From Escherichia coli (GTDB lineage Bacteria > Pseudomonadota > Gammaproteobacteria > Enterobacterales > Enterobacteriaceae), in assembly GCF_011045215.1 (NCBI RefSeq), contig NZ_CP049201.1: DNA of 64,000 nucleotides; one strand, 5' to 3'. Shown here piece after piece: positions 1 through 13,826 of the stretch (positions are counted from its first letter, which is position 1; the number at the start of each line of letters is the position of its first letter). The notes under the pieces are model-generated. The model ran no database searches, was not told where the DNA came from, and saw only the letters and a list, made by a program, of their open reading frames with translations. The translations under genes and the position numbers were made by a program.

Positions 1-1037
1 ATACGGGCAATTTTTATTTTGATGAATTTTTCTGGGTCAGTCGCTTTGCTGAACTGCGCAAGGTGGCTGGCGCTATGGCAACCCTCAGCGGACTGCGGCG
101 CACCTACTTCTCCACGCCATCCACCGAAACGCACGAGGCATACGCCTACTGGAACGGCGACCGCTGGAACGAGAAAAAGGCCTCGCATAAACGCCAGCGT
201 TTTTCTGTGGACTGGAAAACGCTGCATAACGGGCTTATCTGCCCTGACCGGACGTGGCGGCAAATTGTCACGCTGGAAGATGTGGTTAATCACGGCTGGA
301 AACACACCGATATTGACGAAATCCGTGATGAAAACACCGAAGACGAGTTCCTCAATCTCTATATGTGTGAGTTTGTTCGCGAAGGGGAATCGGCATTTAA
401 CCTGAATATCCTGATTGGCTGCGGTGTTGACGGATACGACGACTGGAAAGACTGGAAACCTTTTGCTCCCCGCCCGATGGGGAATCGTCCGGTATGGATT
501 GGGTATGACGCAAACGGCAGCAGTGGCAACGGCGACAGCGGCGCTGTGTCCGTGGTGGTTCCTCCGGCTGTTCCTGGTGGCCGTTTTCGAACGGTGGAGA
601 CGCGACGCGTTCAGGGGCTGGAGTTTGAAGAACAGGCCAGAGTCATTGAAGAGTTCACGTATCGCTACAACGTGGAACACATCGGCATTGATGTGACGGG
701 CGGGAACGGGGAGGCTGTTTATCAGATAGTGAAACGGTTTTTCCCTGCTGCTATTCCGTACACCTTCACGCTGTCATCAAAACGGTCGCTGGTACTGAAA
801 ATGCTGCAAATAATGCGTGCCGGGCGGTGGGAATACGATCGCGCCGAACGCGAGCTGGTCGCGGCCTTTAACGCCGTGCGTAAGGTGAAAACACCGGGCG
901 GCTTTATCACTTACGAAACGGACCGCGCGAGGGGGATCAGCCACGGCGACCTTGCGTGGGCAACCATGCTTGCTGTCATTAACGAACCGATTGGCGGCGA
1001 AGGAGAAAACGAGCGTTTCACGGTTATGGAGTTCTGA
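1..1037 (+). CDS. Phage terminase ATPase (large) subunit, P2 gpP-like; 5' end truncated by the window edge
   Basis: The frame is open from base 3 with no stop, so the listed GTG at 63 is not the true start. It is followed, with a 1-nt ATGA overlap, by the portal gene as in the P2 PQ operon. Codon usage is typical coding. Confidence 0.7.
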   Translation, partial: TGNFYFDEFFWVSRFAELRKVAGAMATLSGLRRTYFSTPSTETHEAYAYWNGDRWNEKKASHKRQRFSVDWKTLHNGLICPDRTWRQIVTLEDVVNHGWKHTDIDEIRDENTEDEFLNLYMCEFVREGESAFNLNILIGCGVDGYDDWKDWKPFAPRPMGNRPVWIGYDANGSSGNGDSGAVSVVVPPAVPGGRFRTVETRRVQGLEFEEQARVIEEFTYRYNVEHIGIDVTGGNGEAVYQIVKRFFPAAIPYTFTLSSKRSLVLKMLQIMRAGRWEYDRAERELVAAFNAVRKVKTPGGFITYETDRARGISHGDLAWATMLAVINEPIGGEGENERFTVMEF

Positions 1038-2083
1038 TGAGCAGAAAAAATAAAAAAGTGCGCATGAGTTCACGCATTGATCTCGCTGATGCGCTCAGGA
1101 AAGAATCATCGCTCAGTGCATTCACATTTGATGGTCCTTATCGCCTGACCGGGCATGACCTGCTGGACAATATGTACTGTGCTGATAACGGGCGGTGGTA
1201 TGAAACCCCGGTGGACTGGTACGGTCTGGCAAGAGCTGCCCGGCAAACGTCCTGGCATCAGTCTGCGCTTTACTTTAAGCGCAATGTATTACTCGGTTGC
1301 TACATCCCGCACCCGCTGCTTTCCCGGCAGGATTTCTCGGCGCTGGCGCTGGACTGGTTTGTGTTCGGTAACGCATTCCTTGAGCTTCGGAGCAATATGC
1401 TCGGCGAACCACTTAAATTACGGCACGCACTGGCGAAATACATGCGACGCGGAAGCGATCTTGAATCATGGTGGTATGTGCAGGATGGCAAGGACGCGTT
1501 TCAGTTTCGCCCTGGCAAAGTGTGCCACCTGATGAATCCGGACATTAACCAGGAAATTTACGGCATGCCGGAATATCTTGGAGCATTACTCTCGGCCAGC
1601 CTGTCTCATTCGGCGGACATGTTCAGAAAACTGTATTACGACAACGGATCCCACGCCGGGTGCATCATCTACATCGGTGCAGCGCAGGTAAACCGCGAAA
1701 GCATGGACTCCCTGAAAGAAACGTTACAGGGTGCGCGTGGTGGTGGTGCGTTTAAAAACGTGCTCATCCACGCGCCCAACGGGGGCAAAGAGGGGGTGCA
1801 AATTTTGCCGTTCCAGCAGATCACCGCAAAGGATGAGTTCATGAATGTTAAGGCGGCATCCCGTGATGATGTGCTGGCTGCGCACCGCGTTCCGCCGCAA
1901 CTGATGGGGGCGATGCCGGGCGAAAAAAGTGCGTTTGGTGATGTGGAGAAGGCCGCGCGGGTTTACGCAATTAACGAGCTGATGCCCGTCATGGAGGCTA
2001 TGAAGCACATCAATGACTGGCTTGGCGAAGAGGTGATCCGCTTTAACCCTTACGCACTGCTGGACACCCAGCCCACATCCTGA
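1037..2083 (+). CDS. Phage portal (capsid portal vertex) protein, P2 gpQ-like
   Basis: 348 aa ORF, the size of P2 Q (~344 aa), immediately downstream of the terminase gene with an ATGA overlap. It is the last gene before the cos-proximal non-coding region. Confidence 0.7.
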   Translation: MSRKNKKVRMSSRIDLADALRKESSLSAFTFDGPYRLTGHDLLDNMYCADNGRWYETPVDWYGLARAARQTSWHQSALYFKRNVLLGCYIPHPLLSRQDFSALALDWFVFGNAFLELRSNMLGEPLKLRHALAKYMRRGSDLESWWYVQDGKDAFQFRPGKVCHLMNPDINQEIYGMPEYLGALLSASLSHSADMFRKLYYDNGSHAGCIIYIGAAQVNRESMDSLKETLQGARGGGAFKNVLIHAPNGGKEGVQILPFQQITAKDEFMNVKAASRDDVLAAHRVPPQLMGAMPGEKSAFGDVEKAARVYAINELMPVMEAMKHINDWLGEEVIRFNPYALLDTQPTS

Positions 2084-2110
2084 CGCGCTTCGCTTGTCTG
2101 CTGCTTCGCC

Positions 2111-2133
2111 GGGGCATAAAAAATTTATGCCCC
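2111..2133 (+). other. Perfect 10-bp-stem hairpin (ggggcataaa/tttatgcccc) 28 bp after the portal stop; possible PQ-operon 3' structure
   Basis: Inverted repeat read directly from the sequence. There is no downstream T-run, so it is not called an intrinsic terminator. Confidence 0.4.
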
Positions 2134-2688
2134 GACTCTCCAGCTCTTGTATCAATCAGATAATTTCACGACGCTTTCCTGCTTATTGCCATCATCGACA
2201 GTCAGACTCTTACGCAATCCCACCGCGTTGACTGCATGTTCTCGCCGTCTCAGTGCGATTTTGACGGCCTTACCTTTCACCCCATCAAATCAAAAGCCCT
2301 CACGTCTTTTTCACGCTCAGCGTGAGAAATACAGCCATTCTGTTGTGTCGCTGCGACATCGTTCAGGGGATGCTATTTACCCCCTGAAACGCGGGCTGTT
2401 CCCCCGTCACCTGCGCGCAGAAAAAACGCGTTTTTTTGTGCACGCACGGTTCCCTGACGGATCCAGCCGCCACGCGGGTCGGAAGGGCAAAAAGTCGTTC
2501 AAAAAAATTGTGCAAATTTGTGCACTTTTGTGCAGGTAAGCATGCCCATATATTTGACCGTAGCTTGCCTTTGATGTAGTTTATGCGTCACAAAAACCAC
2601 AAAACGTGGTTATGATTTCTATGAGGGGGTTGATATGAAAAAAATGTATGATGAATTTGATGGTTTCTAAGCTACGTTGACCTCTAAT

Positions 2689-2717
2689 GAGGCGGGGATT
2701 TGCTCCCCGCCTTTTTT
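2689..2717 (+). terminator. Rho-independent terminator immediately upstream of the low-GC cassette
   Basis: GGCGGGGA-tttgc-TCCCCGCC stem-loop (8-bp GC-rich stem) followed by TTTTTT. Confidence 0.8.
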
Positions 2718-2731
2718 ATGGATGAAATAGG

Positions 2732-3229
2732 ATGAACCCAATAACACTACAAATCATCAGCAATGCTATTGTTCTGCTTGGCGTTTTGGTTGCCATTGGA
2801 ACCATTATCTACAATGTGCGTACCGCAAAAAAAACTCAAACGGCCAACTTTCTTTTTGAGAGTCGGCAAGATATGCAATATATAGAGTCATTGCATACCC
2901 TGAAACAAGTGCATCGTTCAGGCAAATCATTTCGTTCTTATGTTTTTCCTTGTGATGGTTGTACAATAACAGATGAGGAAATGGCCGAGCGTCGAAAATT
3001 TCAATATATTTTAAATTTTTACGAGCGAGTTGCTGTAAGTATTCGTGAAGGTATTTATGATGAAAAAATGATAAAAAGAACATCTTACACAACAGTTGTA
3101 GAGACATATGATATTGCCGAGCCATTAATTAAAGCAATCAGAGAAAGCATTAATTCGGATACTACATATCAAGAATTCGAATGGTTAGTAAGAAGATGGA
3201 AAGCTAATCCTTTACGGAAAAACAAATAA
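2732..3229 (+). CDS. Hypothetical single-pass membrane protein (165 aa), first gene of a low-GC cargo cassette; candidate defence/exclusion component
   Basis: ORF with an N-terminal hydrophobic helix (ITLQIISNAIVLLGVLVAIGTIIY) followed by a charged soluble domain. GC content is visibly lower than the flanking phage genes. No motif recognised. Confidence 0.7.
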   Translation: MNPITLQIISNAIVLLGVLVAIGTIIYNVRTAKKTQTANFLFESRQDMQYIESLHTLKQVHRSGKSFRSYVFPCDGCTITDEEMAERRKFQYILNFYERVAVSIREGIYDEKMIKRTSYTTVVETYDIAEPLIKAIRESINSDTTYQEFEWLVRRWKANPLRKNK

Positions 3230-3268
3230 TGTTTTACCCTTTAATTTACAAGTAACACAGGGGGAAGT

Positions 3269-4111
3269 GTGACACAGAATCCGTTTTCATTTTATGACTT
3301 TTTGGGCTATCTAATTCCAGGTGGGTTATTCCTGTTTATCCTTTTTTTGTTTTCTATTGAAATTAACCCTGTTTATATAGAAGGTATTCTTAACCACATC
3401 CTGAAATATAAAGAAATAATAAGTGTATTTATATATGTGGTATTAATTGTTCTATCATATATTTCAGGTCACTTCATATCTATTCTATCATCCTGTTTAA
3501 TTGAAAAATACATGAACAGTAAACTTGGGTATCCTTCAATTTATCTGTTTTCTAAAAGAAGCTCCCTGAAAATAAAACGACATAATACTAAGTTCAGTAT
3601 AGTTCATTTTATCCGTGGAGTTTTTTTACTTCCTGTATCAGCTTTTGATAAAGCAGAACATCATAAAACCACTCTGCATTCTATACTTATTAAAGTCTTT
3701 TGGCCGCAAATACGAGATGGTTATATAAATGTTTTTTCTGTATCTACGCTATATCGACGTAAGGGCTTGAGGGGCGATCTTTTTCGCCTTGCTTATCATT
3801 ATGTGTATGAACATTCTAAAAATCATCAGGTGAAAATGCAAAACTATGTTGCTTTGTATGGTTTTTGTAGAAACATTACATTTGTTTTTCTCGCTTCAGT
3901 CTGGTTGCTTATATGCCTGTTCCCTCTATCCTTTTTAATAGATATAAATATCAGGTTGTTACCTTTTTGTTTTCTTCTCTTGTTTTGTATTGCTGCATCC
4001 CGAGTATTTTATTATGGTTTTGTTAAGTATTATCGCCGCTATTCTCTTGAGGTTTTAATGGCATTTGCGGTACTTCAGCACGATAAAAAAACTTCGGCAA
4101 TTCCATCATGA
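3269..4111 (+). CDS. Hypothetical four-pass membrane protein (280 aa), second gene of the low-GC cargo cassette; candidate defence/exclusion component
   Basis: GTG start 6 nt after an AGGGGGA Shine-Dalgarno, 39 bp downstream of the previous gene. Four predicted hydrophobic helices (two N-terminal, two C-terminal) flank a ~110 aa basic central region. Low GC. Confidence 0.7.
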   Translation: MTQNPFSFYDFLGYLIPGGLFLFILFLFSIEINPVYIEGILNHILKYKEIISVFIYVVLIVLSYISGHFISILSSCLIEKYMNSKLGYPSIYLFSKRSSLKIKRHNTKFSIVHFIRGVFLLPVSAFDKAEHHKTTLHSILIKVFWPQIRDGYINVFSVSTLYRRKGLRGDLFRLAYHYVYEHSKNHQVKMQNYVALYGFCRNITFVFLASVWLLICLFPLSFLIDINIRLLPFCFLLLFCIAASRVFYYGFVKYYRRYSLEVLMAFAVLQHDKKTSAIPS

Positions 4112-4121
4112 TTTGAAACAT

Positions 4122-4146
4122 TGGCACCCTGTTAGCAAGGGTGCCA
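4122..4146. terminator. Hairpin between the convergent cassette gene and parR-like gene; possible bidirectional terminator
   Basis: tggcaccc-N9-gggtgcca 8-bp stem. The flanks are T/A-rich but lack a clean U-tract. Confidence 0.4.
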
Positions 4147-4194
4147 GAATGATGTGTTGGTATGTATTTTATTAGTTCAAATACAATTGTCAGA

Positions 4195-4509
4195 TTATTC
4201 TGGGAATAAGGTCTGAATATTCTTTTTTATTTTATAAAAATTGCATTCAACTCCGCTAGGCTGATTAGCCTGGTATGTTTCCTTGATGCTAACGGTATTG
4301 AAGGGGAGGTTGTCCTCTGGCCATTCGGCCATCCAGTAGGCAAATGCTGGGTTGCGCTTTATGAGTGCTAGCCCAGCCAGAAAGGCCGCGCGTTGCGCGC
4401 GGCTGCGTTCGGAGGCTGGCAGGCTATCGAGGTAATTGCACGCCTCCTGTTCACTCTTGACGGCGGCGGGCTTCAGATAGAAACTTATCCGTCTGGTTGG
4501 TGTCGTCAT
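4195..4509 (-). CDS. parR: ParR-like partition adaptor / centromere-binding protein
   Basis: 104 aa ORF directly downstream of the parM-like gene. The segment ISFYLKPAAVKSEQEACNYLDSLPASERSRAQRAAFLAGLALIKRNP resembles the plasmid R1 ParR N-terminal ribbon-helix-helix region, as recalled from memory. Confidence 0.7.
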   Translation of the reverse strand: MTTPTRRISFYLKPAAVKSEQEACNYLDSLPASERSRAQRAAFLAGLALIKRNPAFAYWMAEWPEDNLPFNTVSIKETYQANQPSGVECNFYKIKKNIQTLFPE

Positions 4510-4513
4510 TGGT

Positions 4514-5473
4514 TTACTCCTTGTTCATTGCGTACAGTCCATTAACCAGAGCAAACTGTGGCACCCCGTCCGCGATGAAAGTCGCATTAACTCCGCAGGC
4601 TTCGCGGATAGCGGGTGCCACAATCTCCGCCCCGCCACCGACAACCATCACCCGCCCGTAACCCGAAAAAACCGCCAGCGCGCGGATCACGCGTTGTTTC
4701 AGTGTTTCTTCCTTTTCACGAATAACCGCCATCAGGCTGGCGTAATGCGCGTCATTGTGGATGTGCTGGCGCAGCCAGGCTTCATCATGGCGATGTTCGA
4801 TAATGGTATTGGCGATGTGGTGACTGGTGCGCATACCGTTAGTGGCCATCACCGACAGTACGGCATCGGCCATCAGAGAAACGCCTACGTGTGGATCGCA
4901 AAACACCTGGCTGATACCTGCCAGTTGCCCCTGGACCTTTGCCACATCCAGCGTGGTTCCGCCCAAATCCACAATCAGCAGGGATTCAAACGGACTCATG
5001 TCAGCCAGTGCCTTAAAGCCAGCCGGAATGGATTCAGGCATAACCCGTACGTTACGGATAGTGAATGCTTCGCCGTTCTGGTACTCCACCGGGCGCATGA
5101 CGTTCGCTTTTTTGCGGTTGATGTTGGCCATGTCCGGCTGTGCGTTTGTGTCGAAATATTCGCTCAGTGGCAGGGTGACAACCACATCCACTTCCTGTGG
5201 TGTGATGCCTGATTTGACCAGCGCGTGATGAATGGCAATGACATTCACATCGCTGTACTGGTATTGCGTGTCGGTCGTCTGGACAAAGCGATCGCTGACC
5301 GGATCAAAACCATAGCGCACGCCATCAACCATGTAGTTCGCGGGCTGCGTGCCACCGAACGGCGCAGACCATTCCGACTTGAAGCTGTTCGGGCTGATGG
5401 CGTTGCGGCGTTCGCCGTTCTCAGTCCATGCCAGCTTGATGTTGGTGGAGCCGTCATCGATACAAATTTTCAT
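4514..5473 (-). CDS. parM: ParM/StbA-like actin-type segregation ATPase
   Basis: 319 aa. The N-terminus MKICIDDGSTNIKLAW and motifs LIVDLGGTTLD and VMVVGGGAEI resemble R1 ParM (actin-fold phosphate and adenosine motifs). An AAGGAAAAG Shine-Dalgarno lies upstream. Confidence 0.85.
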   Translation of the reverse strand: MKICIDDGSTNIKLAWTENGERRNAISPNSFKSEWSAPFGGTQPANYMVDGVRYGFDPVSDRFVQTTDTQYQYSDVNVIAIHHALVKSGITPQEVDVVVTLPLSEYFDTNAQPDMANINRKKANVMRPVEYQNGEAFTIRNVRVMPESIPAGFKALADMSPFESLLIVDLGGTTLDVAKVQGQLAGISQVFCDPHVGVSLMADAVLSVMATNGMRTSHHIANTIIEHRHDEAWLRQHIHNDAHYASLMAVIREKEETLKQRVIRALAVFSGYGRVMVVGGGAEIVAPAIREACGVNATFIADGVPQFALVNGLYAMNKE

Positions 5474-5507
5474 GTCGCTTTTCCTTATGTTGATTAATTA
5501 ATCGTTT

Positions 5508-5613
5508 GCGGGATTCTGAAATCCCGTTTTTGCCTGTTTTATGCGCGCTTCATATATCGCGGCGCGTTTTTTGCTCATTTACGGGATTTGTGAATCCCGT
5601 TTCTGTCTGTTTT
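5508..5613. repeat. Two ~33-bp direct repeats, each containing a gggatt-N5-aatccc inverted repeat, upstream of parM; candidate parC-like centromere/promoter or plus-strand terminator hairpins
   Basis: Repeat 1 at 5508-5540 (gcgggattctgaaatcccgtttttgcctgtttt) and repeat 2 at 5581-5613 (acgggatttgtgaatcccgtttctgtctgtttt). Repeat 2 overlaps the 3' end of the gpA-like gene. Confidence 0.5.
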
Positions 5614-8373
5614 TTTGTTTCCACTGGTCAGGCTACCCTGCAGCAGGTCTGCTTTGCGGCGGGCGCGTTCAGTGGTTTCACTGATTCTCTGTGCGTGCTC
5701 TGCGTCACAAATGGCGCGCAGCATGTCAGAAAGCACGGTAACGGGTGTTTTCATGGTGTTCTGGACCTGCTGAAGTGTGGATGCCAGGCGTGCGGCGGCT
5801 TCGGGGTCTGATGCCCCGAGCTGTGCCAGATAGCTGGCGACCGGGTTATGGCGGATCTCCGTGCTGCTTACGCCGTGATTACGGCTCAGGCGCTGCCAGA
5901 GCTGCGTGATTCGGCTGTCCGGGCGGGTATCCGGTTTACGTACAATTTCAAATCCCTGCGGTGAAATGATGCTGCCGTCAACGTACAGACTGCCGCCCCG
6001 TAACAGGTGCTGCATCTGCTGTTCACCGATATGCAGGCCGAGAGATTCAGCAGACTCCCGCCATTCTTTAGCGAGTAACTCGTGGTTATCAGGCAAAGGC
6101 CGCGGCTGTTTGCGGCTCTGTGTCCAGCTCTGCATTTCATCGCTGCTGTTTTTTGCCTGTTTGTCACGAAGCGAACGCATCAGCGCCCGGCGTTCGTGCC
6201 GTTTCAGTGAGCGCATCCATTCATTCACTTCAACGCCGTCAGGAAGCTGCGGCCACGGTGCTGGCCGTTCTTCCGACTGTTCTGTCCCGCTGTTGCCTGT
6301 TTCCTGTACACGGGGACAGTTATTGCCACGAGTCCAAGGGGCGGCAGGGCCGCCCTGAAGGTCAAAACCATTTTCGCGGGCGCTGTCTTCCGCTTCCGGT
6401 TTACGTCTTACCAGCTTCCAGTTATCCGGATGCGTGCACACACGGGAGGATTCCCCGATGAGTGGTGACCAGATCCCGTAAATCTGTACGCTCTGTTCGC
6501 CGTAATCGTTCAGCTCATCTGCGAGGTCGTAGGCGGTGCGAATCAGGTAGTCTTTACGTGGAACAAGTACGCCACCCTGTTTCTCAATGTAGGTGGCAAA
6601 ACATCCGGCATCAGCGGCAGCAAGAACCGCATCCATTGCGTCATCCTTCAGCCGTTGCGGGCCTTCCGGGTTGCGTGCCATCTGGCTGGCAAGGCGGCGG
6701 AGTTCACGCCACACCTGACGGGAGGGAATGCCAAAGAACTGGAACTGGCGGACCCGGTGAAGGCGCGCCCAGCCGATGGCGCGCTCCACGCTCTCGGCCA
6801 TTGATTTACCTGTTTCGTGGTCAACGCGTGGCTTGCCCGTTTTCGGGTCGATGCCATCCACGGCACGGCTGTCCAGGTTTTTCCCAATGTAGGTGGCGAT
6901 GTAGCTGGTCGGTGTGCCTTTTGAGCCGTCGACGTACTCCGCCTTAAAGCGTGGGGTAATATCATCACCCAGCTCGTGACGATCTTCCTGAATGGCAATA
7001 TCGCGGGTGTGGGACACAATGGTGTCGATTTCTTCCGGATGAGCAAAGACCATCATATGCCAGTGCACGGTGCCGTCATGGTGAGGCTCCACCGTGCGGA
7101 TGCCATACCAGCGCAGGCCGTCGCGGTTCAGTTTCTTGCGGACCGCCGCAAAAAACGTGTTAACCAGGTAATCGCTGGAGTCGCGCATGGTGGCCCCGTT
7201 CCATTTGGGATTCGGATGACCGTTCTCCGTTGTTGCGTGGTATTTTGACGGGCAGGTGACAGTCAGAAACACCGCTCTGTCGCCACGGGCTTCGGCCAGA
7301 AGTTCCAGCCCCTTCATGGTGGCCATCATTTCTGCCTTACGGTGAACCGGGTTACTTACTCCCGCGTAATACACTGTCTCGAGATCAATCGTGAACCCGT
7401 CTTCATTTTCCAGCATGAAACTTTTCAGGAAATCGCGTGTTTTCTCGCGCTGTGCGCGAAACTCGCTTAACGCGTCCTGGCTCAGATATGGTGATGTTTT
7501 TCTGGAAACCAGACAGGCGGCGCGGAGTTGTTCTTCTCTCCACTCGCAACGTAACAGCCACAGTTTGCGTTTCCACCATTCCGCACAGGTCAGGCGAAGG
7601 ATTGCGCCCGGCAGCAGCTCCGTGTCCGGTTCGTTCCTCCGGTCTTTGTCTGTCGTCAGTGCGTCATAATGTGGAGGCATGGCGTGCAGGTGTAACGCCA
7701 TGCGGGCCAGCATCTGATACGCCTTCAGCGTTACATCCATGGTCAGTTCACCATCAGTCGCGCCAAAGCCATCGCAGAGTTTTTCGAAGGTGCTGCTGAA
7801 CATCGCCGCCGTCATGGTGGCCAGCGTCTGTATCTGGTGTTTGTTGAGCTGCGGCAGGTAAAGCAAATCGTCCAGGCGTTCGCGTCCGGCAAGGGAGCGA
7901 TAACCCGGTGTCAGCCAGCGTCCGTCAGTGCGATCCAGACGTTCGAATATTTTGCGCAGGGTTCCGCGTGCATAGCGTTCCGCCTGCCAGCTCTTTTTGC
8001 CTTTCCTGCGATCGGCTTCCTGTTTTTTGCGCAGGAAGGAGAGGTGGCGAATAAGCGGATCGCGCAGATAGGACGGCAGCAGGCGCAGCGAGGCCATGGC
8101 TTCATCCACCGCGCCGCGTGCCTGTTTTCTGGCGTCTCCTGCCAGTGTGATGGTTTTGTCCTGTTTTTCCTGTGCGTCCAGGCTTTTATTAATCAGGTTG
8201 CCCAGCGGCGTGGCGGAGAACGCCGCATCAGCCATTTCCTGGCGGCGCTCGTTCTCTGCCCGGTAGGCATCCAGCCAGGAGGAAAGCGCGGATTCAGGAG
8301 CGGGGATCCCCGTTCCTTCACGCCCCACTGCGTGGCGCGGTTGTTGCCAGTCCCTGATGTACTCTGCCGTCAT
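5575..8373 (-). CDS. Phage replication initiation protein, P2 gpA family (HUH rolling-circle endonuclease)
   Basis: 932 aa ORF containing a TVHWHMMVF motif of the HUH type. Its position after the early-operon genes matches gene A of P2/186. Confidence 0.85.
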   Translation of the reverse strand: MTAEYIRDWQQPRHAVGREGTGIPAPESALSSWLDAYRAENERRQEMADAAFSATPLGNLINKSLDAQEKQDKTITLAGDARKQARGAVDEAMASLRLLPSYLRDPLIRHLSFLRKKQEADRRKGKKSWQAERYARGTLRKIFERLDRTDGRWLTPGYRSLAGRERLDDLLYLPQLNKHQIQTLATMTAAMFSSTFEKLCDGFGATDGELTMDVTLKAYQMLARMALHLHAMPPHYDALTTDKDRRNEPDTELLPGAILRLTCAEWWKRKLWLLRCEWREEQLRAACLVSRKTSPYLSQDALSEFRAQREKTRDFLKSFMLENEDGFTIDLETVYYAGVSNPVHRKAEMMATMKGLELLAEARGDRAVFLTVTCPSKYHATTENGHPNPKWNGATMRDSSDYLVNTFFAAVRKKLNRDGLRWYGIRTVEPHHDGTVHWHMMVFAHPEEIDTIVSHTRDIAIQEDRHELGDDITPRFKAEYVDGSKGTPTSYIATYIGKNLDSRAVDGIDPKTGKPRVDHETGKSMAESVERAIGWARLHRVRQFQFFGIPSRQVWRELRRLASQMARNPEGPQRLKDDAMDAVLAAADAGCFATYIEKQGGVLVPRKDYLIRTAYDLADELNDYGEQSVQIYGIWSPLIGESSRVCTHPDNWKLVRRKPEAEDSARENGFDLQGGPAAPWTRGNNCPRVQETGNSGTEQSEERPAPWPQLPDGVEVNEWMRSLKRHERRALMRSLRDKQAKNSSDEMQSWTQSRKQPRPLPDNHELLAKEWRESAESLGLHIGEQQMQHLLRGGSLYVDGSIISPQGFEIVRKPDTRPDSRITQLWQRLSRNHGVSSTEIRHNPVASYLAQLGASDPEAAARLASTLQQVQNTMKTPVTVLSDMLRAICDAEHAQRISETTERARRKADLLQGSLTSGNKKTDRNGIHKSRK

Positions 8374-8379
8374 AGTGAT

Positions 8380-8745
8380 TTACTTCGTCATGCCATTCAG
8401 GGTGTCGCGGCAGACTGTAGCCAGCCGCTGAATTTCCAGCACGGTGTCTTCTGTGTCGGCATGGCGATGTGTGATGCGGATGCTGTCGGCAATCACATCG
8501 ACGATTGCAGAGGATGGGCGCTGGTAAATGCCAATAACGGACGGGGTGCCACCTTCAATGCGGTAAAGCCTGTAATTTCCCTCGTGGCTGTCAATCATGT
8601 AGCGACCATCAATAACAATCTTTCCGTCAGCGAGCTGCGGTACAGGCAGAGATTTCAGGTACATGTCATAACGATCACGCACGCGAGCGGCAAGATCACG
8701 TTCTGTGTTGAGCAGGTATTCAAGAAAGTCGTTGGCGAGAATCAT
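8380..8745 (-). CDS. Hypothetical phage early-operon protein (121 aa)
   Basis: ORF immediately upstream of the gpA-like gene on the same strand with tight spacing. No motif recognised. Confidence 0.55.
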   Translation of the reverse strand: MILANDFLEYLLNTERDLAARVRDRYDMYLKSLPVPQLADGKIVIDGRYMIDSHEGNYRLYRIEGGTPSVIGIYQRPSSAIVDVIADSIRITHRHADTEDTVLEIQRLATVCRDTLNGMTK

Positions 8746-8817
8746 TGCGGCAATCCTCTTGTTACAGATGTGCGAAGGCCTCCCGCCGCAAGGTGCAGGA
8801 AAGGCCCGGAACAGGAA

Positions 8818-9048
8818 TTAATGGAGTTTGTTTTGCTGCTGGATGAGCTGTTGAAGCTCGTGCAGATCATCCGCCAGATAGCTGAAAACAGAGGCGGAAT
8901 AAATGTTTGATAGTGCGTGGCTGCGCTCATGCCGCATATTGATGTGCATGATTTGCGCGACGCGTGATGCGCGGGAAAGTCTGCGGTTGATTTCAGTCTG
9001 GATGTGACGACGCTCCGCGATAGCGCGGTGCTGTTTGCGGTCTGCCAT
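8818..9048 (-). CDS. Hypothetical phage early-operon protein (76 aa)
   Basis: ORF with an AAGAGG Shine-Dalgarno ~8 nt upstream of the ATG. Basic, helical-looking sequence. Confidence 0.45.
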   Translation of the reverse strand: MADRKQHRAIAERRHIQTEINRRLSRASRVAQIMHINMRHERSHALSNIYSASVFSYLADDLHELQQLIQQQNKLH

Positions 9049-9370
9049 GGTGTGGCCTCTTTGCTCGGTGATAGAAATAACTCACCATCCAGAGTTGAGA
9101 ATCTCGGGGTGGCGAGACGTACAGGGTTCTCAACACCGGAGAGCAAAGAATCCGGCCCGACCGAAGTCGGCCCCGTACGCCCCGCCATAATTCTGACGCG
9201 AAAAAGACGTGGCAATACAGTACGCACAAAAAAACCGCTTGCGCGGTTATGCGCTTTGCTCTGTATCGGGTTGAGAATCCCGGCACCCGTTTTATGAGGT
9301 GCAGCGGAAATGTAACCTGACCGATTGAGGCATGGCAAGCGGTTTTTTTGTGTGTGCATGTTCTGGTTTC

Positions 9371-9670
9371 TTAGTGGTTCAGAAAAAAATCAAAAACCTT
9401 GTCAATGCGTTGCAGCAGCTCTTTCTGTATTGCTTCCGGCGTTTCCGGTTCGCCTGGCGCCTCCAACGTCGCGCAGAAATCCTCGATTTCATGACGGAGC
9501 GTCAGGCGAATGGCGAGAGGTGTGGTTTTGGCGTGCTCCAGCTGATCCAGCAGTGCCAGCACAGCAGACGGCGAGAGCATTGCGCGAAATGCCAGTAATT
9601 TTTGAGGAGTTGCCATTCGTTGCAGGGCAAATGCCAGTTCGCGTAGCTTCTGGTGGTTGGTGGTGCTCAT
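9371..9670 (-). CDS. Hypothetical phage early-operon protein (99 aa)
   Basis: ORF whose start overlaps the stop of the upstream gene (ATGA), typical of this operon. Confidence 0.55.
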   Translation of the reverse strand: MSTTNHQKLRELAFALQRMATPQKLLAFRAMLSPSAVLALLDQLEHAKTTPLAIRLTLRHEIEDFCATLEAPGEPETPEAIQKELLQRIDKVFDFFLNH

Positions 9671-9933
9671 GTTCTGGCTTCCTTCAGTAGCTGGTTAAAC
9701 ATGTGAGTAAGTGGATTGCTACACCCGAACGGCATCGGGTTTACGTGGTAAGAAGCCTGGCCTCCAGTTTTGCGAGCGCGACCACCTGTGCTGCGGTTTG
9801 TTCTGATGACTAAGCCGCCGCGCCAAAGTCGGCGTAACTCAGTATTAATAGCTGTGGTTGGGGTGTTCAATGCTGCGGCGATCTCTCCGCCGCTACACCC
9901 CGGATGAGTAGCGATGTAGTCCAGAATGGTCAT
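9667..9933 (-). CDS. Putative winged-helix DNA-binding protein (88 aa)
   Basis: The sequence ILDYIATHPGCSGGEIAAALNTPTTAINTELRRLWRGGLVIRT looks like a winged helix-turn-helix. Translationally coupled to both neighbours. Confidence 0.6.
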   Translation of the reverse strand: MTILDYIATHPGCSGGEIAAALNTPTTAINTELRRLWRGGLVIRTNRSTGGRARKTGGQASYHVNPMPFGCSNPLTHMFNQLLKEART

Positions 9934-10133
9934 CTGCGTGGCTCCTGTACCTGTCGGATAAGATTCACCCGCGCCACGTTGGTGGCGCAGAAGTAAGTGC
10001 CGTCAGTGAGGTAGATGTGGTGTGCATCCTTTTCCGAACGATGTTTGTCGATAGTGGTAATCAGGCGTTCGTCGACCTCGTATTCGCGCCCTCTGGAGGT
10101 AAAGCGAACGACGGGAAAATGCTTAATTGCCAT
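9930..10133 (-). CDS. Hypothetical phage protein (67 aa)
   Basis: ORF with a 4-nt overlap onto the downstream gene. Confidence 0.5.
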   Translation of the reverse strand: MAIKHFPVVRFTSRGREYEVDERLITTIDKHRSEKDAHHIYLTDGTYFCATNVARVNLIRQVQEPRR

Positions 10134-10156
10134 TGCGCCCCCTTTGTCCAGTAACC

Positions 10157-10573
10157 CTATGCGTTAAATACGGCACGTTGCGCGTCATCAATGAATACAG
10201 CTTGAGAGCGTTCTATCAGGCGGAGATTTGTCAGAAGCTCTGACTCTTTTGTGTGGTAAGGCGTTATCAGGTATTTGCCGTGCAGTTCGGCAATAATGGT
10301 GTATTGCAGCATCATTGCTGAACCAAGAATATAAATGCAGCGTCCAATGCTGGACGGATTCATGGCTGCAACTGTTGACTGTGTTTTAAGAGTGTCGATT
10401 TCTTTGCTCTGTTCCTCAATAATTTTGGCTGCGTCAGCGGTGATTTTTGCAATGGTCAGTGCGTGAAGTGCTGCCATATGTTGGCTACGCTTCACGGCAT
10501 CTTTAGCCATTTCATCTTCCGCTTCTGATATTTTTTTTAATGTGTCGATAATGCCTTCTTCTTTTGCGTTCAT
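10157..10573 (-). CDS. Hypothetical phage protein (138 aa)
   Basis: ORF with a GGAGAT Shine-Dalgarno upstream. No recognisable motif. Confidence 0.55.
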   Translation of the reverse strand: MNAKEEGIIDTLKKISEAEDEMAKDAVKRSQHMAALHALTIAKITADAAKIIEEQSKEIDTLKTQSTVAAMNPSSIGRCIYILGSAMMLQYTIIAELHGKYLITPYHTKESELLTNLRLIERSQAVFIDDAQRAVFNA

Positions 10574-10665
10574 TTTATATCTCCGTTATTTACGTGTGCG
10601 AATACCTCCGCGAATGCGGATAGTTTTCAGGTTTTCGGGTTTAATCTGGTGTTTTGTTTAAGCTG

Positions 10666-10779
10666 TTATTCGTCAGTGAAAAAGCGTTCAATCTTTTTTA
10701 CTGAATGAATAATTCGCATAATCCCAATGGCGCAGGCCACCGAAATAATCAGAACAAGCCATGAGATAAATATACTCAT
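10666..10779 (-). CDS. Possible small hydrophobic protein (37 aa, MSIFISWLVLIISVACAIGIMRIIHSVKKIERFFTDE)
   Basis: Not in the supplied ORF track; read by hand. Its ATG overlaps the stop of the upstream 80-aa gene (ATGA), and it encodes one predicted transmembrane helix. Confidence 0.35.
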   Translation of the reverse strand: MSIFISWLVLIISVACAIGIMRIIHSVKKIERFFTDE

Positions 10780-11018
10780 GCGATATTCCCCAGCTTATAC
10801 GGTTCAATGTGTTCCCCGCATTCTGCGGCACAGATCAGCTCGGAAAGTTCGTTAAGTGCATCCAGATCATCAGCGTAAAAAGCGACGTCATACAAACTCC
10901 GGATTGCCCTGGTCAATGAGTCACGGGCTGCACGTTCAGCATGAGCGCCTGATGCACTTAAGCGAAAATAAAATCGTTCAAGTGCTTTATTAATGAGAGT
11001 TTTATATTCTTTGCCCAT
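10776..11018 (-). CDS. Hypothetical phage protein (80 aa)
   Basis: ORF in the operon series. Confidence 0.5.
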   Translation of the reverse strand: MGKEYKTLINKALERFYFRLSASGAHAERAARDSLTRAIRSLYDVAFYADDLDALNELSELICAAECGEHIEPYKLGNIA

Positions 11019-11029
11019 CGCAACGCCCT

Positions 11030-11308
11030 TTAATCTGCTTTCTGAATTTCAGCTTCTGAATCCATACAAATAATTTCGATATAGGGTTCATCGCCATTAA
11101 CCTGACGTGCCTTTTCAGCTTCGCTAATGATTTCTCGTACGGTCTGGTACGGAAGCTCCACAGTCAGGCGCGTACCGTTCAGATAAACGTAAGTAGCTGC
11201 GTTTTTTTCTGATGGGACGACTCCATCAATAGCTGATGCGCGTAATAACAGTTCACCGCGAAAATCAATAAAACGGATAAATACACCTTGTGCATGCTCT
11301 TTGGCCAT
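11030..11308 (-). CDS. Hypothetical phage protein (92 aa from ATG at 11308)
   Basis: The track ORF runs to 11407, but the ATG at 11308 has an AGGTG Shine-Dalgarno and avoids overlapping the upstream gene. Confidence 0.5.
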   Translation of the reverse strand: MAKEHAQGVFIRFIDFRGELLLRASAIDGVVPSEKNAATYVYLNGTRLTVELPYQTVREIISEAEKARQVNGDEPYIEIICMDSEAEIQKAD

Positions 11309-11318
11309 AAAGCACCTG

Positions 11319-11777
11319 TTATAAATCAGCCTGTTTAATGAAATTCTGTCCGCGCAGCAGACGATCAACCGTGCGTAGCGCTTCGTACAATGTGAAATCC
11401 TGCCCAAACTGATTGTCGCCGTTGCTCAGAGCAAAAATGCGGTTTCCGGTAAATGGGTTGTGCGGGCATCTGTGAACCACGATTCCAGCTTTCTCAATCA
11501 GCCAGGTGTGTTCACCAATTTGTTTTACGGGATGGCCATCAGGTGTGGCGTGTGTTTCGCTCAAGCTGTAGCGAGAGTTGCTACGCGATGCACTGTTAGC
11601 GAAACGGTTAGCATGGTGTTCCGCCCCGTTGCGGAAGCGTTGCTGTGAAGAATTGCACTGTTGCTTCATGTCAAAAACTCCGTACCTATTTACTTCCCCG
11701 GCATAACGCCCATTTTCAAAGTAATTGCGACGAAATCCCGTGTTGTGGGGCTTGCCATTTCGCTGCTGCTTACTCAT
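11319..11777 (-). CDS. Hypothetical phage protein (~152 aa from ATG at 11777)
   Basis: The track ORF starts at a TTG at 11804. The ATG at 11777 (MSKQQ...) has a GAGG Shine-Dalgarno and does not overlap the upstream gene. Confidence 0.5.
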   Translation of the reverse strand: MSKQQRNGKPHNTGFRRNYFENGRYAGEVNRYGVFDMKQQCNSSQQRFRNGAEHHANRFANSASRSNSRYSLSETHATPDGHPVKQIGEHTWLIEKAGIVVHRCPHNPFTGNRIFALSNGDNQFGQDFTLYEALRTVDRLLRGQNFIKQADL

Positions 11778-11788
11778 TTTTCGTGCCT

Positions 11789-11995
11789 CTACCCGATGAG
11801 CCAAATAACAAACGCTGTGAGCACCGCACCAATGGTGATCGGAAAAAGACCTCTGGCATAAGCGGCGAGGTAATGAACGTTGAGAACAATAAAGCGTTCT
11901 TTTTGTCCTGTTAGCTTGCTAAGCAGATAAATCGCTATTACACCCACTTCTAGGAATACAAGGTCCAAAATGGCGCTGGTGATATTGTTGGTCAT
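11789..11995 (-). CDS. Small membrane protein (68 aa, two hydrophobic helices)
   Basis: ORF directly downstream of the cox-like gene. Hydrophobic composition. Confidence 0.5.
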   Translation of the reverse strand: MTNNITSAILDLVFLEVGVIAIYLLSKLTGQKERFIVLNVHYLAAYARGLFPITIGAVLTAFVIWLIG

Positions 11996-12001
11996 TTATG
12001 A

Positions 12002-12289
12002 TTAAAGCCCCAGCCACAACAACCATGCATCGCGGCGTTCTTTCGGCTGATCAAAAAACGCTTTGCGCATACCTGCGTTAAATGCTGGCAGATATACCCA
12101 GTTTTCTGATGCTCGCGTCTTCACTGAACCTGGTTTCACAAAGTCAATCGTTGGTAATTTTGCAGCGTCAATCATGGTTCTGACGGTTGATTCTTTGCGA
12201 CCAATCATCTTGGCAAATAGTTGATATGGCACCGCTTCAAGTGGATATGGTGCTACCTGAATGAACCCCTCAAGCTCTGATTCGCTCAT
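12002..12289 (-). CDS. cox: Cox-like excisionase / lytic-switch regulator (P2 Cox family)
   Basis: The segment PYQLFAKMIGRKESTVRTMIDAAKLPTIDF...NWVYLPAFNAGMRKAF...RDAWLLWLGL resembles remembered P2 Cox. It is the first gene of the leftward operon, divergent from the repressor gene. Start chosen at MSESE (AAGGAG Shine-Dalgarno); the track ORF extends to 12325. Confidence 0.75.
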   Translation of the reverse strand: MSESELEGFIQVAPYPLEAVPYQLFAKMIGRKESTVRTMIDAAKLPTIDFVKPGSVKTRASENWVYLPAFNAGMRKAFFDQPKERRDAWLLWLGL

Positions 12290-12404
12290 TGTGGTAATCT
12301 CCTTAATTCGTCCAAATGGCCCCAAATGGCTTATATAGGCTTATTTTGGCTATTTGAATGTTTTGTATTACATGTAACCCAATAGCGTGGAGTTTAGATC
12401 ACAT
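12290..12404. promoter_or_regulatory. Divergent early/repressor promoter-operator region (Pe/Pc-type immunity switch)
   Basis: 115-bp AT-rich intergenic region between the divergent cox-like and C-like genes. It carries tandem CCAAATGGC repeats (12312-12320, 12322-12330) and GGCTTA repeats. Confidence 0.6.
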
Positions 12405-12725
12405 ATGATCCATAAATCAAGCCTTGGAGAAAAACTTCGCCTGATTCGAGAGGCAGAGGGATTGTCACGTAGAGAGATGGAAGAGGTGACAGGGGTATCT
12501 CAAAACAATCTCAAAAATTATGAAATATTGGGAAGAATGATACCTGGAGAAACGCTACTCCTGATTTTGAATCATCCTCGTTTTCGGAAGTATTCGGATT
12601 GGGTGATGTTTAATCAAACTAATGCTGCGACGGGGCAGATTGCTCCGCCTCTCTCTCTTGATGGCTTCTTCGATTCGGAGGGCGATCAGGTTTCAACCGA
12701 AACAAACCAAAAATCACCCCGCTAA
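12405..12725 (+). CDS. Immunity repressor, P2 C-like (HTH)
   Basis: The segment LSRREMEEVTGVSQNNLKNYE...RFRKYSDWVMFNQTNAATGQIAPPLS resembles remembered P2 C (LSRQQLADLTGVPYGTLSYYE...QFTKYTLWFMTNQIAPESGQIAPAL). Start placed at the ATG at 12405; the track GTG at 12387 lacks a Shine-Dalgarno. Confidence 0.75.
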   Translation: MIHKSSLGEKLRLIREAEGLSRREMEEVTGVSQNNLKNYEILGRMIPGETLLLILNHPRFRKYSDWVMFNQTNAATGQIAPPLSLDGFFDSEGDQVSTETNQKSPR

Positions 12726-12821
12726 GGCCAGAAAACTGGTTAGACCTGCTCTTTGTCTGGTCTGATTATTGCTGGAAAGAGGCTGGAGAAATTGTAGAGC
12801 GGTTCATTGGAGGGCTTCGCA

Positions 12822-13826
12822 ATGTCAATTAAGAAGCTCGAAGATGGTCGTTATTTGCTGGACATCAGGCCGAACGGACGCAAGGGAAAGCGCGTGCGTA
12901 AGGTATTTGACAAAAAATCGGTAGCGGTGGCCACTGAACGCTACATCATGGCGAACGCTGAAAAGCGGGAATATATACAGGGCTACCGTGATCGCCGAAC
13001 GCTAAATGATTTGCTTGAGTTGTGGTGGATGTATCACGGTCAACACAGGCGTAAGGCGGAAGAAGACCGAAAACAACTGCGCAACATAATCAATGAGCTT
13101 GGCGCTGATATGCAGGCTGTGGATCTTGATAAGCTGAAAATTATCGCGTGGCGTTCTCAAAAGATAGCTGATGGATTGAAACCGTCATCTGCTAACAGAT
13201 ACATGAATCGGTTATCCGGAATGTTTACCGTACTGAAGAAAATAGGCCTCTGGGATGCAGAACATCCGGTAAGGGGAATTTCTATTCTTTATGTATCTCC
13301 ACGAGAAATGGCTTTCCTGTCCCAGAAGGAAGTGGCGCTATTGCTCGATACACTGGAGGGCGATTACTGGCGTGTTGCGCTTTTGTGTTTAAGCACGGGG
13401 GCGCGCTGGAGTGAAGCTTGTAAGCTTCGTGGTGAACAGATAGTTCATAACCGTGTAACGTTTCTTGAAACCAAAAATGGCCGAAAGAGAACAGTGCCAA
13501 TTTCGCAGGCAGTTTGTGAGGCGATCAAAACCAGAGAAACAGGCGGCTTGTTTGAGGTGAAGTACCGGGAATTCTGCTTGGCGCTGAAAAGAGTTAAGCC
13601 CGATTTGCCAAAAGGCCAGGCTGCACATGTGCTGCGGCATACGTTCGCCAGCCATTTTGTGATGAACGGAGGAAACATTATTGCGCTTCAGAAGATTCTT
13701 GGCCACGCAACCATTCAGCAAACAATGGCATATGCACATTTTGCACCGGATTACCTGCAGGATGCGGTGGCCCTTAATCCGCTGAAAGGTGGCGTGAGTG
13801 TCCACGCAGTGTCCACGGGGGATTAA
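12822..13826 (+). CDS. int: Tyrosine integrase, P2 Int family
   Basis: The N-terminus MSIKKLEDGRYLLDIRPNGRKGKRVRK and C-terminal HVLRHTFASHF...MAYAHFAPDYLQDAVALNPL (catalytic His/Arg/Tyr region) closely resemble remembered P2 Int. GGAGGG Shine-Dalgarno 7 nt upstream of the ATG; the track TTG at 12807 is an alternative start. Confidence 0.9.
   Translation: MSIKKLEDGRYLLDIRPNGRKGKRVRKVFDKKSVAVATERYIMANAEKREYIQGYRDRRTLNDLLELWWMYHGQHRRKAEEDRKQLRNIINELGADMQAVDLDKLKIIAWRSQKIADGLKPSSANRYMNRLSGMFTVLKKIGLWDAEHPVRGISILYVSPREMAFLSQKEVALLLDTLEGDYWRVALLCLSTGARWSEACKLRGEQIVHNRVTFLETKNGRKRTVPISQAVCEAIKTRETGGLFEVKYREFCLALKRVKPDLPKGQAAHVLRHTFASHFVMNGGNIIALQKILGHATIQQTMAYAHFAPDYLQDAVALNPLKGGVSVHAVSTGD

Follow-up and report, generated by a model that had tools for sequence, protein, structure and literature searches.

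A probable cos site of modular P2-family plan in a P88-like prophage of Escherichia coli

Cos sites of the P2 family and the prophage locus

The genomes of phages P2 and 186 and of the satellite P4 have known 19-nt 5' cohesive ends, whereas the ends discussed below for an Escherichia coli prophage are predicted from sequence. When the two ends of the P2, 186 and P4 genomes were joined so as to run in the same direction as the window (the stretch of 64,000 nucleotides of E. coli contig NZ_CP049201.1 that was analysed here), the same order of elements followed the cohesive end in all three: a 19-nt spacer, the sequence TTTTAATGCA, about 62 nt of variable sequence and finally a set of three (N)ATGCA copies at intervals of about 10 bp. 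Ziermann and Calendar are said to have described a 55-bp cos core of P2-type phages in 1990. The 55-bp core is cited as a recognition feature of P2-type cos sites (PMC5694545, PMC3931495). The cohesive ends of the Ralstonia phage phiRSA1 have also been published (PMC5694545); in this phage TTTTAATGCA lies 19 nt from the end, a pair of TATGCA copies spaced by 10 bp follows about 65 nt later, and a CATGCA comes after a wider gap. Compared with P2, the later repeat copies of phiRSA1 are thus one base closer and the gap before the last copy is wider. In phiCTX, TTTTTCTGCA stands at the place equivalent to the first repeat (R1) of the layout described below and is accompanied by further CTGCG/CTGCA copies, and the GenBank record annotates a 'region 3 containing R4, R5, R6 repeats' across cos. 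As to its position, the cos site of P2 has been placed between gpQ and the gpA-side hotspot, the gpQ-gpA interval being a hotspot of variable genes that adjoins cos (Rousset et al.; PMC9122126).

The window starts inside a terminase large-subunit gene, which is followed on the + strand by a 348-aa portal gene (1037-2083) whose product is 47% identical to P2 gpQ. The interval beyond it, 2084-2540, is 100% identical in E. coli KSC9, and it matches both the prophages of about 1,140 of 5,426 complete E. coli genomes and the P88-like phages (genus Xuanwuvirus, family Peduoviridae) at 92-98% identity. The KSC9 prophage has a complete P2-type packaging set (homologs of the large terminase gpP and of gpO, gpN, gpM and gpL), and in this strain P2-type scaffold, capsid, small terminase (gpM) and head-completion genes lie directly upstream of the window; the gpM homolog, WP_000632345.1, is 36% identical to P2 gpM and is encoded about 5 kb upstream. 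The prophage in the window is an intact member of the P88-like group (Xuanwuvirus, Peduoviridae). Its interval 2084-2540 has the position that cos takes in P2, with the 3' end of a gpQ-like portal gene on one side, an accessory hotspot on the other and a P2-type terminase/portal/capsid module in attendance. The initial annotation had seen no credible ORF in this region, which agrees with the lack of any PHROG family match for the three mechanical ORFs found in it (130, 42 and 50 aa). Some GenBank records annotate small hypothetical proteins in the interval. An Rfam search of 1900-2900 gave no match at the gathering score, and the P88 paper does not mention cos.

We propose that window 2369-2535 is probably the cos site of this intact prophage and that it follows a modular plan common to the P2 family, a reading that is based on comparison of sequences and of their spacing. 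The features of the region, from left to right, are as follows.

2110-2134, + strand: terminator-like stem-loop with an 11-bp perfect stem, an AAA loop and no T-run, 27 nt past the stop codon of the gpQ-like portal gene
2304-2332, no strand assigned: imperfect palindrome with the core TCACGCTcAGCGTGA at 2311-2325, 86% complementary over 2304-2332
2369-2535, + strand: putative cos packaging module, the sole block common to P88-like prophages and an unrelated satellite-like island, its right edge being the end of backbone homology
2393-2413, no strand assigned: predicted cosN zone, homolog of the P2 19-nt cohesive end, reading GGGCTGTTCCCCCGTCACC on the + strand at 2393-2411
2412-2446, no strand assigned: spacer between cosN and R1, with the box TGCGCGCA at 2412-2419 and an A6CGCGT6 palindrome at 2421-2436
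2431-2442, + strand: R1, a T-run followed by GTGCA (TTTTTTTGTGCA), counterpart of TTTTAATGCA in P2, 186 and P4
2443-2500, no strand assigned: inter-repeat spacer of fixed length and variable sequence, with a GC-rich dyad (CCGCcacGCGG) at 2467-2477 and the point, between 2489 and 2490, that corresponds to the opening of record LR595891.1
2501-2534, + strand: A7 tract followed by R2-R4, three TTGTGCA copies in exact 10-bp phase, 97% identical to the satellite-like island
2535-4190, + strand: start of the variable, AT-rich hotspot cassette, with a DUF4760 gene and a gene for a 280-aa protein; outside cos

Repeats and predicted cohesive end

The four TTGTGCA copies of the module lie on the same strand at 2436-2442, 2508-2514, 2518-2524 and 2528-2534. 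All four had been recorded in the initial annotation, with coordinates that were off by 0-1 nt and with the first copy of the triplet given as TTTGTGCA where the DNA reads ATTGTGCA; the roughly helical spacing reported there is an exact 10-bp phase for the last three copies (R2, R3 and R4), whereas the first (R1) stands apart, 72 bp upstream of R2. Tandem Repeats Finder likewise returned a period-10 array at 2504-2534. Over the whole window the heptamer shows no enrichment (13 matches, where 15 are expected) and the signal therefore lies in its clustering, the chance of four same-strand copies within 99 bp being about 3e-6 by a Poisson estimate from the window rate. An A/T tract precedes each of R2-R4, and the tracts flanking the repeats are T7, A7, A3T3 and T4. 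R1 is near-invariant over 28-34 divergent representatives, with TCGTGCA in 2 of them.

The spacing of these words is what connects the module to cos sites of known ends. Anchored on R1, the offsets of (A/G)TGCA are -5, +67, +77 and +87 in the window, in P88_4B11, in Enterobacter phage phiT5282H and in the satellite-like island described below, and -5, +67, +77 and +89/90 in P2, 186 and P4. Because the offsets agree with those of cos sites whose ends are known, we read the TTGTGCA repeats of the window as the local version of the repeat plan common to P2-family cos sites. The word itself changes between lineages, being ATGCA in P2, 186, P4 and phiRSA1, GTGCA in the P88-like phages and their relatives, and CTGCA in phiCTX. 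R1 appears to close the published 55-bp cos core, the extent of the core being our reading of the P2/P4 comparison; its layout and lengths in the window are the same as in P2, with the T-run and GTGCA in place of TTTTAATGCA. Over this core the identity of the window to P2 is 48% for the 19-mer zone and 32% for the spacer, and it is low outside the C-run and R1.

The candidate cohesive end is a 19-mer at 2393-2411, separated from the T-run of R1 by about 19 nt on the upstream side, a spacing that P2, 186 and P4 share. It agrees with P2 GTGCTTTCCCCGCCTCGCC at 13 of 19 positions, a comparison that on the opposite strand sets its reverse complement (GGTGACGGGGGAACAGCCC) against the P2 cohesive end GGCGAGGCGGGGAAAGCAC. 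The predicted 5' overhang of the portal-side end would be 5'-GGTGACGGGGGAACAGCCC-3'; this overhang strand starts with GGTGA, a start that it has in common with the ends, known or predicted, of phiRSA1 and AP3, and the cosN-like 19-mer is flanked by CGCG on one side and by TGCGCGCA on the other. The initial annotation had recommended alignment to the ends of P2 and 186 as a way to locate a 19-nt cohesive end, and comparison with P2, 186 and P4 puts this homolog, which had gone unnoticed there, at about 2393-2413. To avoid circularity, IMG/VR was scanned with the R2-R3 word only and the sequence at the fixed upstream offset was then read. Two main types were found at that offset, the 19-mer of the window type and TTGCTCCCCCGCCTCGCC, which is nearly the P2 cohesive end; the E. 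coli prophage L011 has GGGCTTTCCCCCCGTCACC, with a match of 15/19 to the P2 cohesive end. The occurrence of near-P2 variants at the same offset ties the window 19-mer to P2 cosN. The nick positions within the predicted cosN could be off by about 2 nt, since this zone differs slightly in length between the window lineage and the P2-like variant. A first alignment, in which window CCGTCACCTGCGCGCAG was equated with CCGTCAGCGCGCAG in the left flank of P2 cosN, was dropped since the R1-anchored register and the bridging variants fit better. IMG/VR loci that stop inside the cos region were also considered as a source of physical ends, and their limits turned out to be internal storage-block boundaries rather than contig ends.

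Conservation was followed per 20 nt in 48 distinct P88-like homologs, in which identity was 0.997-0.999 over 2380-2419, about 0.90 over 2440-2479, 0.995 over 2500-2519 and 0.04 after 2534; the peaks are partly forced, the loci having been fetched with words from 2402-2416 and 2508-2524, but positions 2380-2401, outside both fetch words, are as conserved as the peak. The predicted cosN is about 99.8% conserved among homologs and is identical in the satellite-like island described below. Since the collapse of homology after 2534 coincides with a drop in G+C content (28-40% from 2535 to about 4190, against 50-57% in the backbone, to which it recovers afterwards), the last repeat marks the exact edge of the backbone, between 2534 and 2535.

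In its general plan the module resembles the cos sites of P2, 186 and P4 on several counts: it follows the portal gene, it has a G+C-rich cohesive-end sequence with CGCG/GCGCGC boxes, a spacer of about 19 nt, a T-run with NTGCA and, after another 72 bp, three NTGCA copies phased by roughly 10 bp, it forms a block common to a satellite, and a variable gene hotspot adjoins it. It differs from them in the repeat word (GTGCA here, ATGCA there), in the spacer, which holds the A6CGCGT6 palindrome in place of a GC-rich CCGCCC...GGGCGG dyad, and in the distance from cosN to the portal stop codon, which is about 310 nt here compared to about 170 nt in P2. With phiCTX and phiRSA1 it shares repeats that flank a P2-type cohesive end, the first at a distance of about 19 nt and the phased copies following after about 70 nt more, whereas the repeat words (CTGCA/CTGCG in phiCTX) and the hosts are different and phiCTX has attP and an integrase gene next to cos. 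There is also a likeness of layout, and of layout only, to lambda cosB (R3-I1-R2-R1, bound by gpNu1 and bent by IHF), where short small-terminase recognition repeats again lie on one side of the nick site and a bendable spacer sets one of them apart; the two have no sequence homology, and all repeats are direct here while lambda R3 is inverted. The P2-family terminase, moreover, reportedly prefers circular monomers. Inspection of the module by eye gave no convincing match to the IHF consensus.

Within the spacer between cosN and R1, the perfect 16-bp palindrome that had been described at 2421-2436 (AAAAAACGCGTTTTTT) is present, and the spacer as a whole (2412-2446) forms an imperfect 15+15 dyad, with R1 as one of its arms. 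The idea that a dyad is conserved in this spacer as a general feature was considered and rejected: the lineage with the P2-like cosN has a stem of 3 there, equal to that of shuffled sequence, stems of at least 5 are found mainly in the window lineage, and many lineages have some different dyad at this place. Of the A6CGCGT6 palindrome, only the T-run, which belongs to R1, is general.

A satellite-like island and alternative readings

In E. coli 600468, hpt and gcd flank an island of about 13 kb that has genes for two integrases, an HTH regulator, an Icd-like protein, a large primase, an Ogr/Delta-like activator, a diverged homolog of the P2-family capsid protein and MazEF; no terminase, portal or tail genes were found in it. 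Members of this island family occur in 55 complete E. coli genomes. The primase resembles P4 alpha at the level of motifs only, which points to a satellite-like lineage independent of P4. The only part that the island shares with the approximately 420 genomes that carry P88-like prophages is a stretch of about 167 bp, 4985-5151 of the island locus (L010), which corresponds to window 2369-2535. Identity between window and island alternates along this stretch: 95% in the 19-mer zone, 63% in the spacer between cosN and R1, 100% in R1, 50% in the inter-repeat segment, 97% in the A-tract with R2-R4 and 31% beyond R4. The comparison of P2 with P4 gives 95% in the 19-mer zone and 100% in R1, and in the R2-R4 segment the ATGCA words and their positions alone are kept, identity being 46% overall. 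These two patterns imply that two unrelated satellites keep the same elements at the same spacing. The island presumably depends on the terminase of a P88-like helper.

The sharing with a satellite, together with the positional match to P2, 186 and P4, supports the suggestion in the initial annotation of a cos or terminase-recognition region with cosB-type repeats. The region might, however, be cos with its cohesive end elsewhere, namely between R1 and R2 at about 2471-2489 (CACGCGGGTCGGAAGGGCA), in which case the C-rich 19-mer at 2393-2411 would be a terminase-binding or relic element. This alternative comes from the linear record LR595891.1 (P88_4B11), which is oriented like P2 and was opened at the equivalent of the junction between 2489 and 2490, some 80 nt away from the cosN predicted here. 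In a genome of 37 kb, an opening chosen at random would fall within 100 bp of cos with a probability of about 0.5%, and the break is preceded by 19 nt that are rich in G+C and bear a loose resemblance to GGCGAGGCGGGGAAAGCAC in the opposite orientation, which makes a cut site at this point a real rival. We nevertheless hold it to be unlikely. The segment 2471-2489 lies in the least conserved part of the module, at 50% identity to the satellite, at about 0.90-0.95 among close homologs (below its neighbours) and unalignable in distant TTGTGCA phages, and the equivalent inter-repeat segment is not cut in P2, 186, P4 or phiRSA1, whose ends are known. A cut between the repeats would also leave unexplained the near-P2 cohesive-end sequence that related phages have at the position of 2393-2411. 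No second phage record of the lineage was opened at the same point or elsewhere in cos, and no paper on P88_4B11 (LR595891.1) was found.

The initial annotation had offered a further possibility, operators that control the downstream cassette; more broadly, the repeats could be operator or promoter elements by which a regulator of phage or host origin acts on the expression of this hotspot cassette. The TTGTGCA repeats directly adjoin this cassette, and the third tandem repeat of P2 shares bases with the -35 element (TTGAAT) of the old-tin promoter, with transcript starts annotated about 30 nt downstream. This reading is outweighed, and in our view quite improbable, because the repeats and their spacing stay constant while the sequence that follows is wholly different among dozens of prophages, and because the same repeats are found in two unrelated satellites with different neighbour genes. 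Furthermore, the distance between repeats and cosN is fixed across genera, and the sole promoter-like match in the window lies inside the cassette, at 2587-2616. Given the overlap of the last P2 repeat with the old promoter -35, the repeats may still have a secondary regulatory role. Lastly, direct repeats arranged in tandem with a 10-bp phase are a typical feature of plasmid centromeres and two partition-protein genes (phrog_2515 and phrog_691, at 4195-5473) lie 1.7-3 kb away, but a centromere of parS/parC-like iterons is very improbable here because P2, 186, P4 and the satellite-like island follow the same plan of repeats and show no annotated partition genes in those stretches of them that were examined, and the repeats track cosN rather than partition genes.

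Recognition of the putative cos site and elements to its left

If 2369-2535 is a cos site of the P2-family plan, packaging could be pictured as follows. Terminase would nick cosN (about 2393-2413) on both strands, with a stagger of about 19 nt, and the gpM homolog, as the small terminase subunit, would bind the four RTGCA repeats, which would be presented on one face of the helix because 72 bp is about 7 turns and the triplet is phased by 10 bp. Binding of gpM would bend or wrap the DNA, a deformation that the flanking A/T tracts would favour, and the large subunit would thereby be positioned on cosN, in a manner comparable to the use of the cosB R elements by lambda Nu1. We infer the binding of the repeats by gpM from analogy; in the accessible experimental literature we found no paper on binding of such repeats by gpM, even for P2. 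The divergence of the gpM homolog (36% identity to P2 gpM) fits the change of word from ATGCA to GTGCA. A P2-like cosN is found with either ATGCA or GTGCA and the window-type cosN with GTGCA, and such mixed combinations fit two separate recognition modules. We put forward, tentatively, the wider possibility that the fixed layout and the lineage-specific 5-mer amount to a recognition code of the Peduoviridae small terminase, which would have evolved apart from the cohesive end and whose P88-type version would have been captured by an unremarked satellite lineage with its own capsid-protein gene. If this were true, the word would decide which satellites a helper packages, and a swap of words would re-target packaging.

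The kind of element described here is already well understood and we do not claim a new one; what goes slightly beyond routine is the strict repeat geometry across the family, the lineage-specific word and a second, independent helper-satellite pair that shares the plan. For a very common type of E. coli prophage, the analysis locates the probable packaging site and predicts the genome ends, and it fixes the exact left edge, between 2534 and 2535, of a defence/accessory hotspot. It also gives a testable map of the constrained bases of P2-family cos sites that could be of use for cosmids, transducing particles, cos-knockout helpers and the prediction of helper-satellite pairing.

The hairpin, the two palindromes and the repeats had been listed in the initial annotation as candidates for cosB-type repeats or for operators. 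The TTGTGCA repeats are retained as parts of cos, whereas the hairpin and the 2311-2325 palindrome lie outside the module and A6CGCGT6 is peculiar to the lineage. The palindrome that had been given as 2312-2324 with extended flanks is present, with its core at 2311-2325 (TCACGCT-c-AGCGTGA) and an imperfect extension over 2304-2332; it is kept among close P88-like relatives only and is absent from the satellite-like island. By eye it had seemed similar to a left-of-cos motif of P2 and 186, a candidate that was rejected when 35% and 52% of shuffles scored as well or better in local alignment; the left arms of P2 and 186 show clear homology to each other in the same shuffle-tested alignment. The palindromes at 2311-2325 and 2421-2436 are thus both lineage-specific and not conserved parts of cos. 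A further hairpin, at 2362-2388, is conserved in close relatives only and is counted as lying to the left of the satellite-shared block.

The hairpin for which a 10-bp stem had been noted at 2111-2133 is also present and is slightly longer, its 11-bp stem spanning 2110-2134 with the arms CGGGGCATAAA (2110-2120) and TTTATGCCCCG (2124-2134) and a 3-nt loop. It was not flagged in a scan for consensus terminators. By its position alone we regard it as a terminator-like structure at the 3' end of the terminase-portal operon, separate from the cos module; the tQ terminator of P2 and the tW terminator of 186 are annotated at the equivalent place. The RNA fold of 2084-2150 has an energy of -24 kcal/mol (z = -3.7), and the stem-loop is about 99% conserved in the 48 P88-like homologs.

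Symmetric elements and an opening point at the cos module

A short GC-rich dyad is found in most lineages halfway from repeat R1 to R2 (window 2443-2500 and its equivalents in related loci); its sequence varies while its symmetry is apparently kept from lineage to lineage, as in CGCCAGtgCTGGCG, CCAGTACTGG, CGCCAGctCTGGCG in 186 and CCGCGCCgggaatGGCGCGG in P4. In its R1-R2 segment the window has no more than the small CCGCcacGCGG, and P2, unlike most lineages, has no GC-rich dyad between these two repeats. Such a dyad might serve as a bend or as the site of a host factor. Two further dyads lie to the left of the cos module:

Window 2304-2332: dyad, GTCTTTTTCACGCT/AGCGTGAGAAATAC
Window 2362-2388: dyad, TTCAGGGG-11 nt-CCCCTGAA

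Conservation of these two dyads is limited to close P88-like relatives, and the satellite-like island of E. coli 600468 lacks counterparts of both.

LR595891.1, the linear GenBank record of P88_4B11, is the sole public record of the P88-like phage lineage to end inside the cos module. Its two ends (position 1 of locus L001 and position 3001 of locus L002) correspond to window 2489|2490, and this opening and the cosN homolog are ~80 nt apart.

The cassette and the neighbouring partition genes

Three elements precede the DUF4760 gene, all within 200 bp of the cassette's start; they are listed here together with that gene:

Window 2587-2616: promoter-like site, GTCACA-18-TATGAT
Window 2635-2670: mini-ORF of 11 codons (MKKMYDEFDGF) with a good Shine-Dalgarno sequence
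Window 2689-2713 plus T-run: strong intrinsic terminator
Window 2732-3229: DUF4760 protein gene (phrog_2284)

Taken together, window 2587-2731 looks like a leader/attenuator arrangement or a small RNA. The first 226 bp of the cassette, queried alone (window 2535-2760, ending 29 nt inside the DUF4760 gene), were found in ~279 E. coli genomes. The cassette at window 2732-4111 is variable and AT-rich (28-40% GC), and its second product, a 280-aa protein (phrog_12528), is weakly matched to Csx27 by PADLOC (6e-6).

Between the cassette and the gpA-like replication gene (932 aa, window 5575-8373) lies a pair of partition genes, the presence of which at this place is unusual relative to P2 itself:

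Window 4195-5473, minus strand: genes for two partition proteins (phrog_2515, 104 aa; phrog_691, 319 aa)

This gene pair is a hint that P88-like phages may have the option of being maintained like a plasmid.

A satellite-like island with its own capsid gene

L214 ~600-13700 (NZ_CP025849.1 553.6-566.7 kb): satellite-like island of ~13 kb in the hpt-gcd interval of E. coli 600468
L010 4985-5151: cos copy of this island

The island encodes two integrases, an HTH regulator, an Icd-like protein, an Ogr/Delta-like protein, MazEF and an 889-aa primase (phrog_1139) that is, beyond motifs, unrelated to P4 alpha. Terminase, portal and tail genes are absent from the island. It also encodes a P2-family major capsid homolog of 423 aa, which is extended by ~118 aa at its N-terminus and shares 36% identity with helper-type gpN. 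A satellite combining its own capsid gene with a P88-type cos may merit separate study; members of the island family occur in 55 of the 5,426 complete E. coli genomes.
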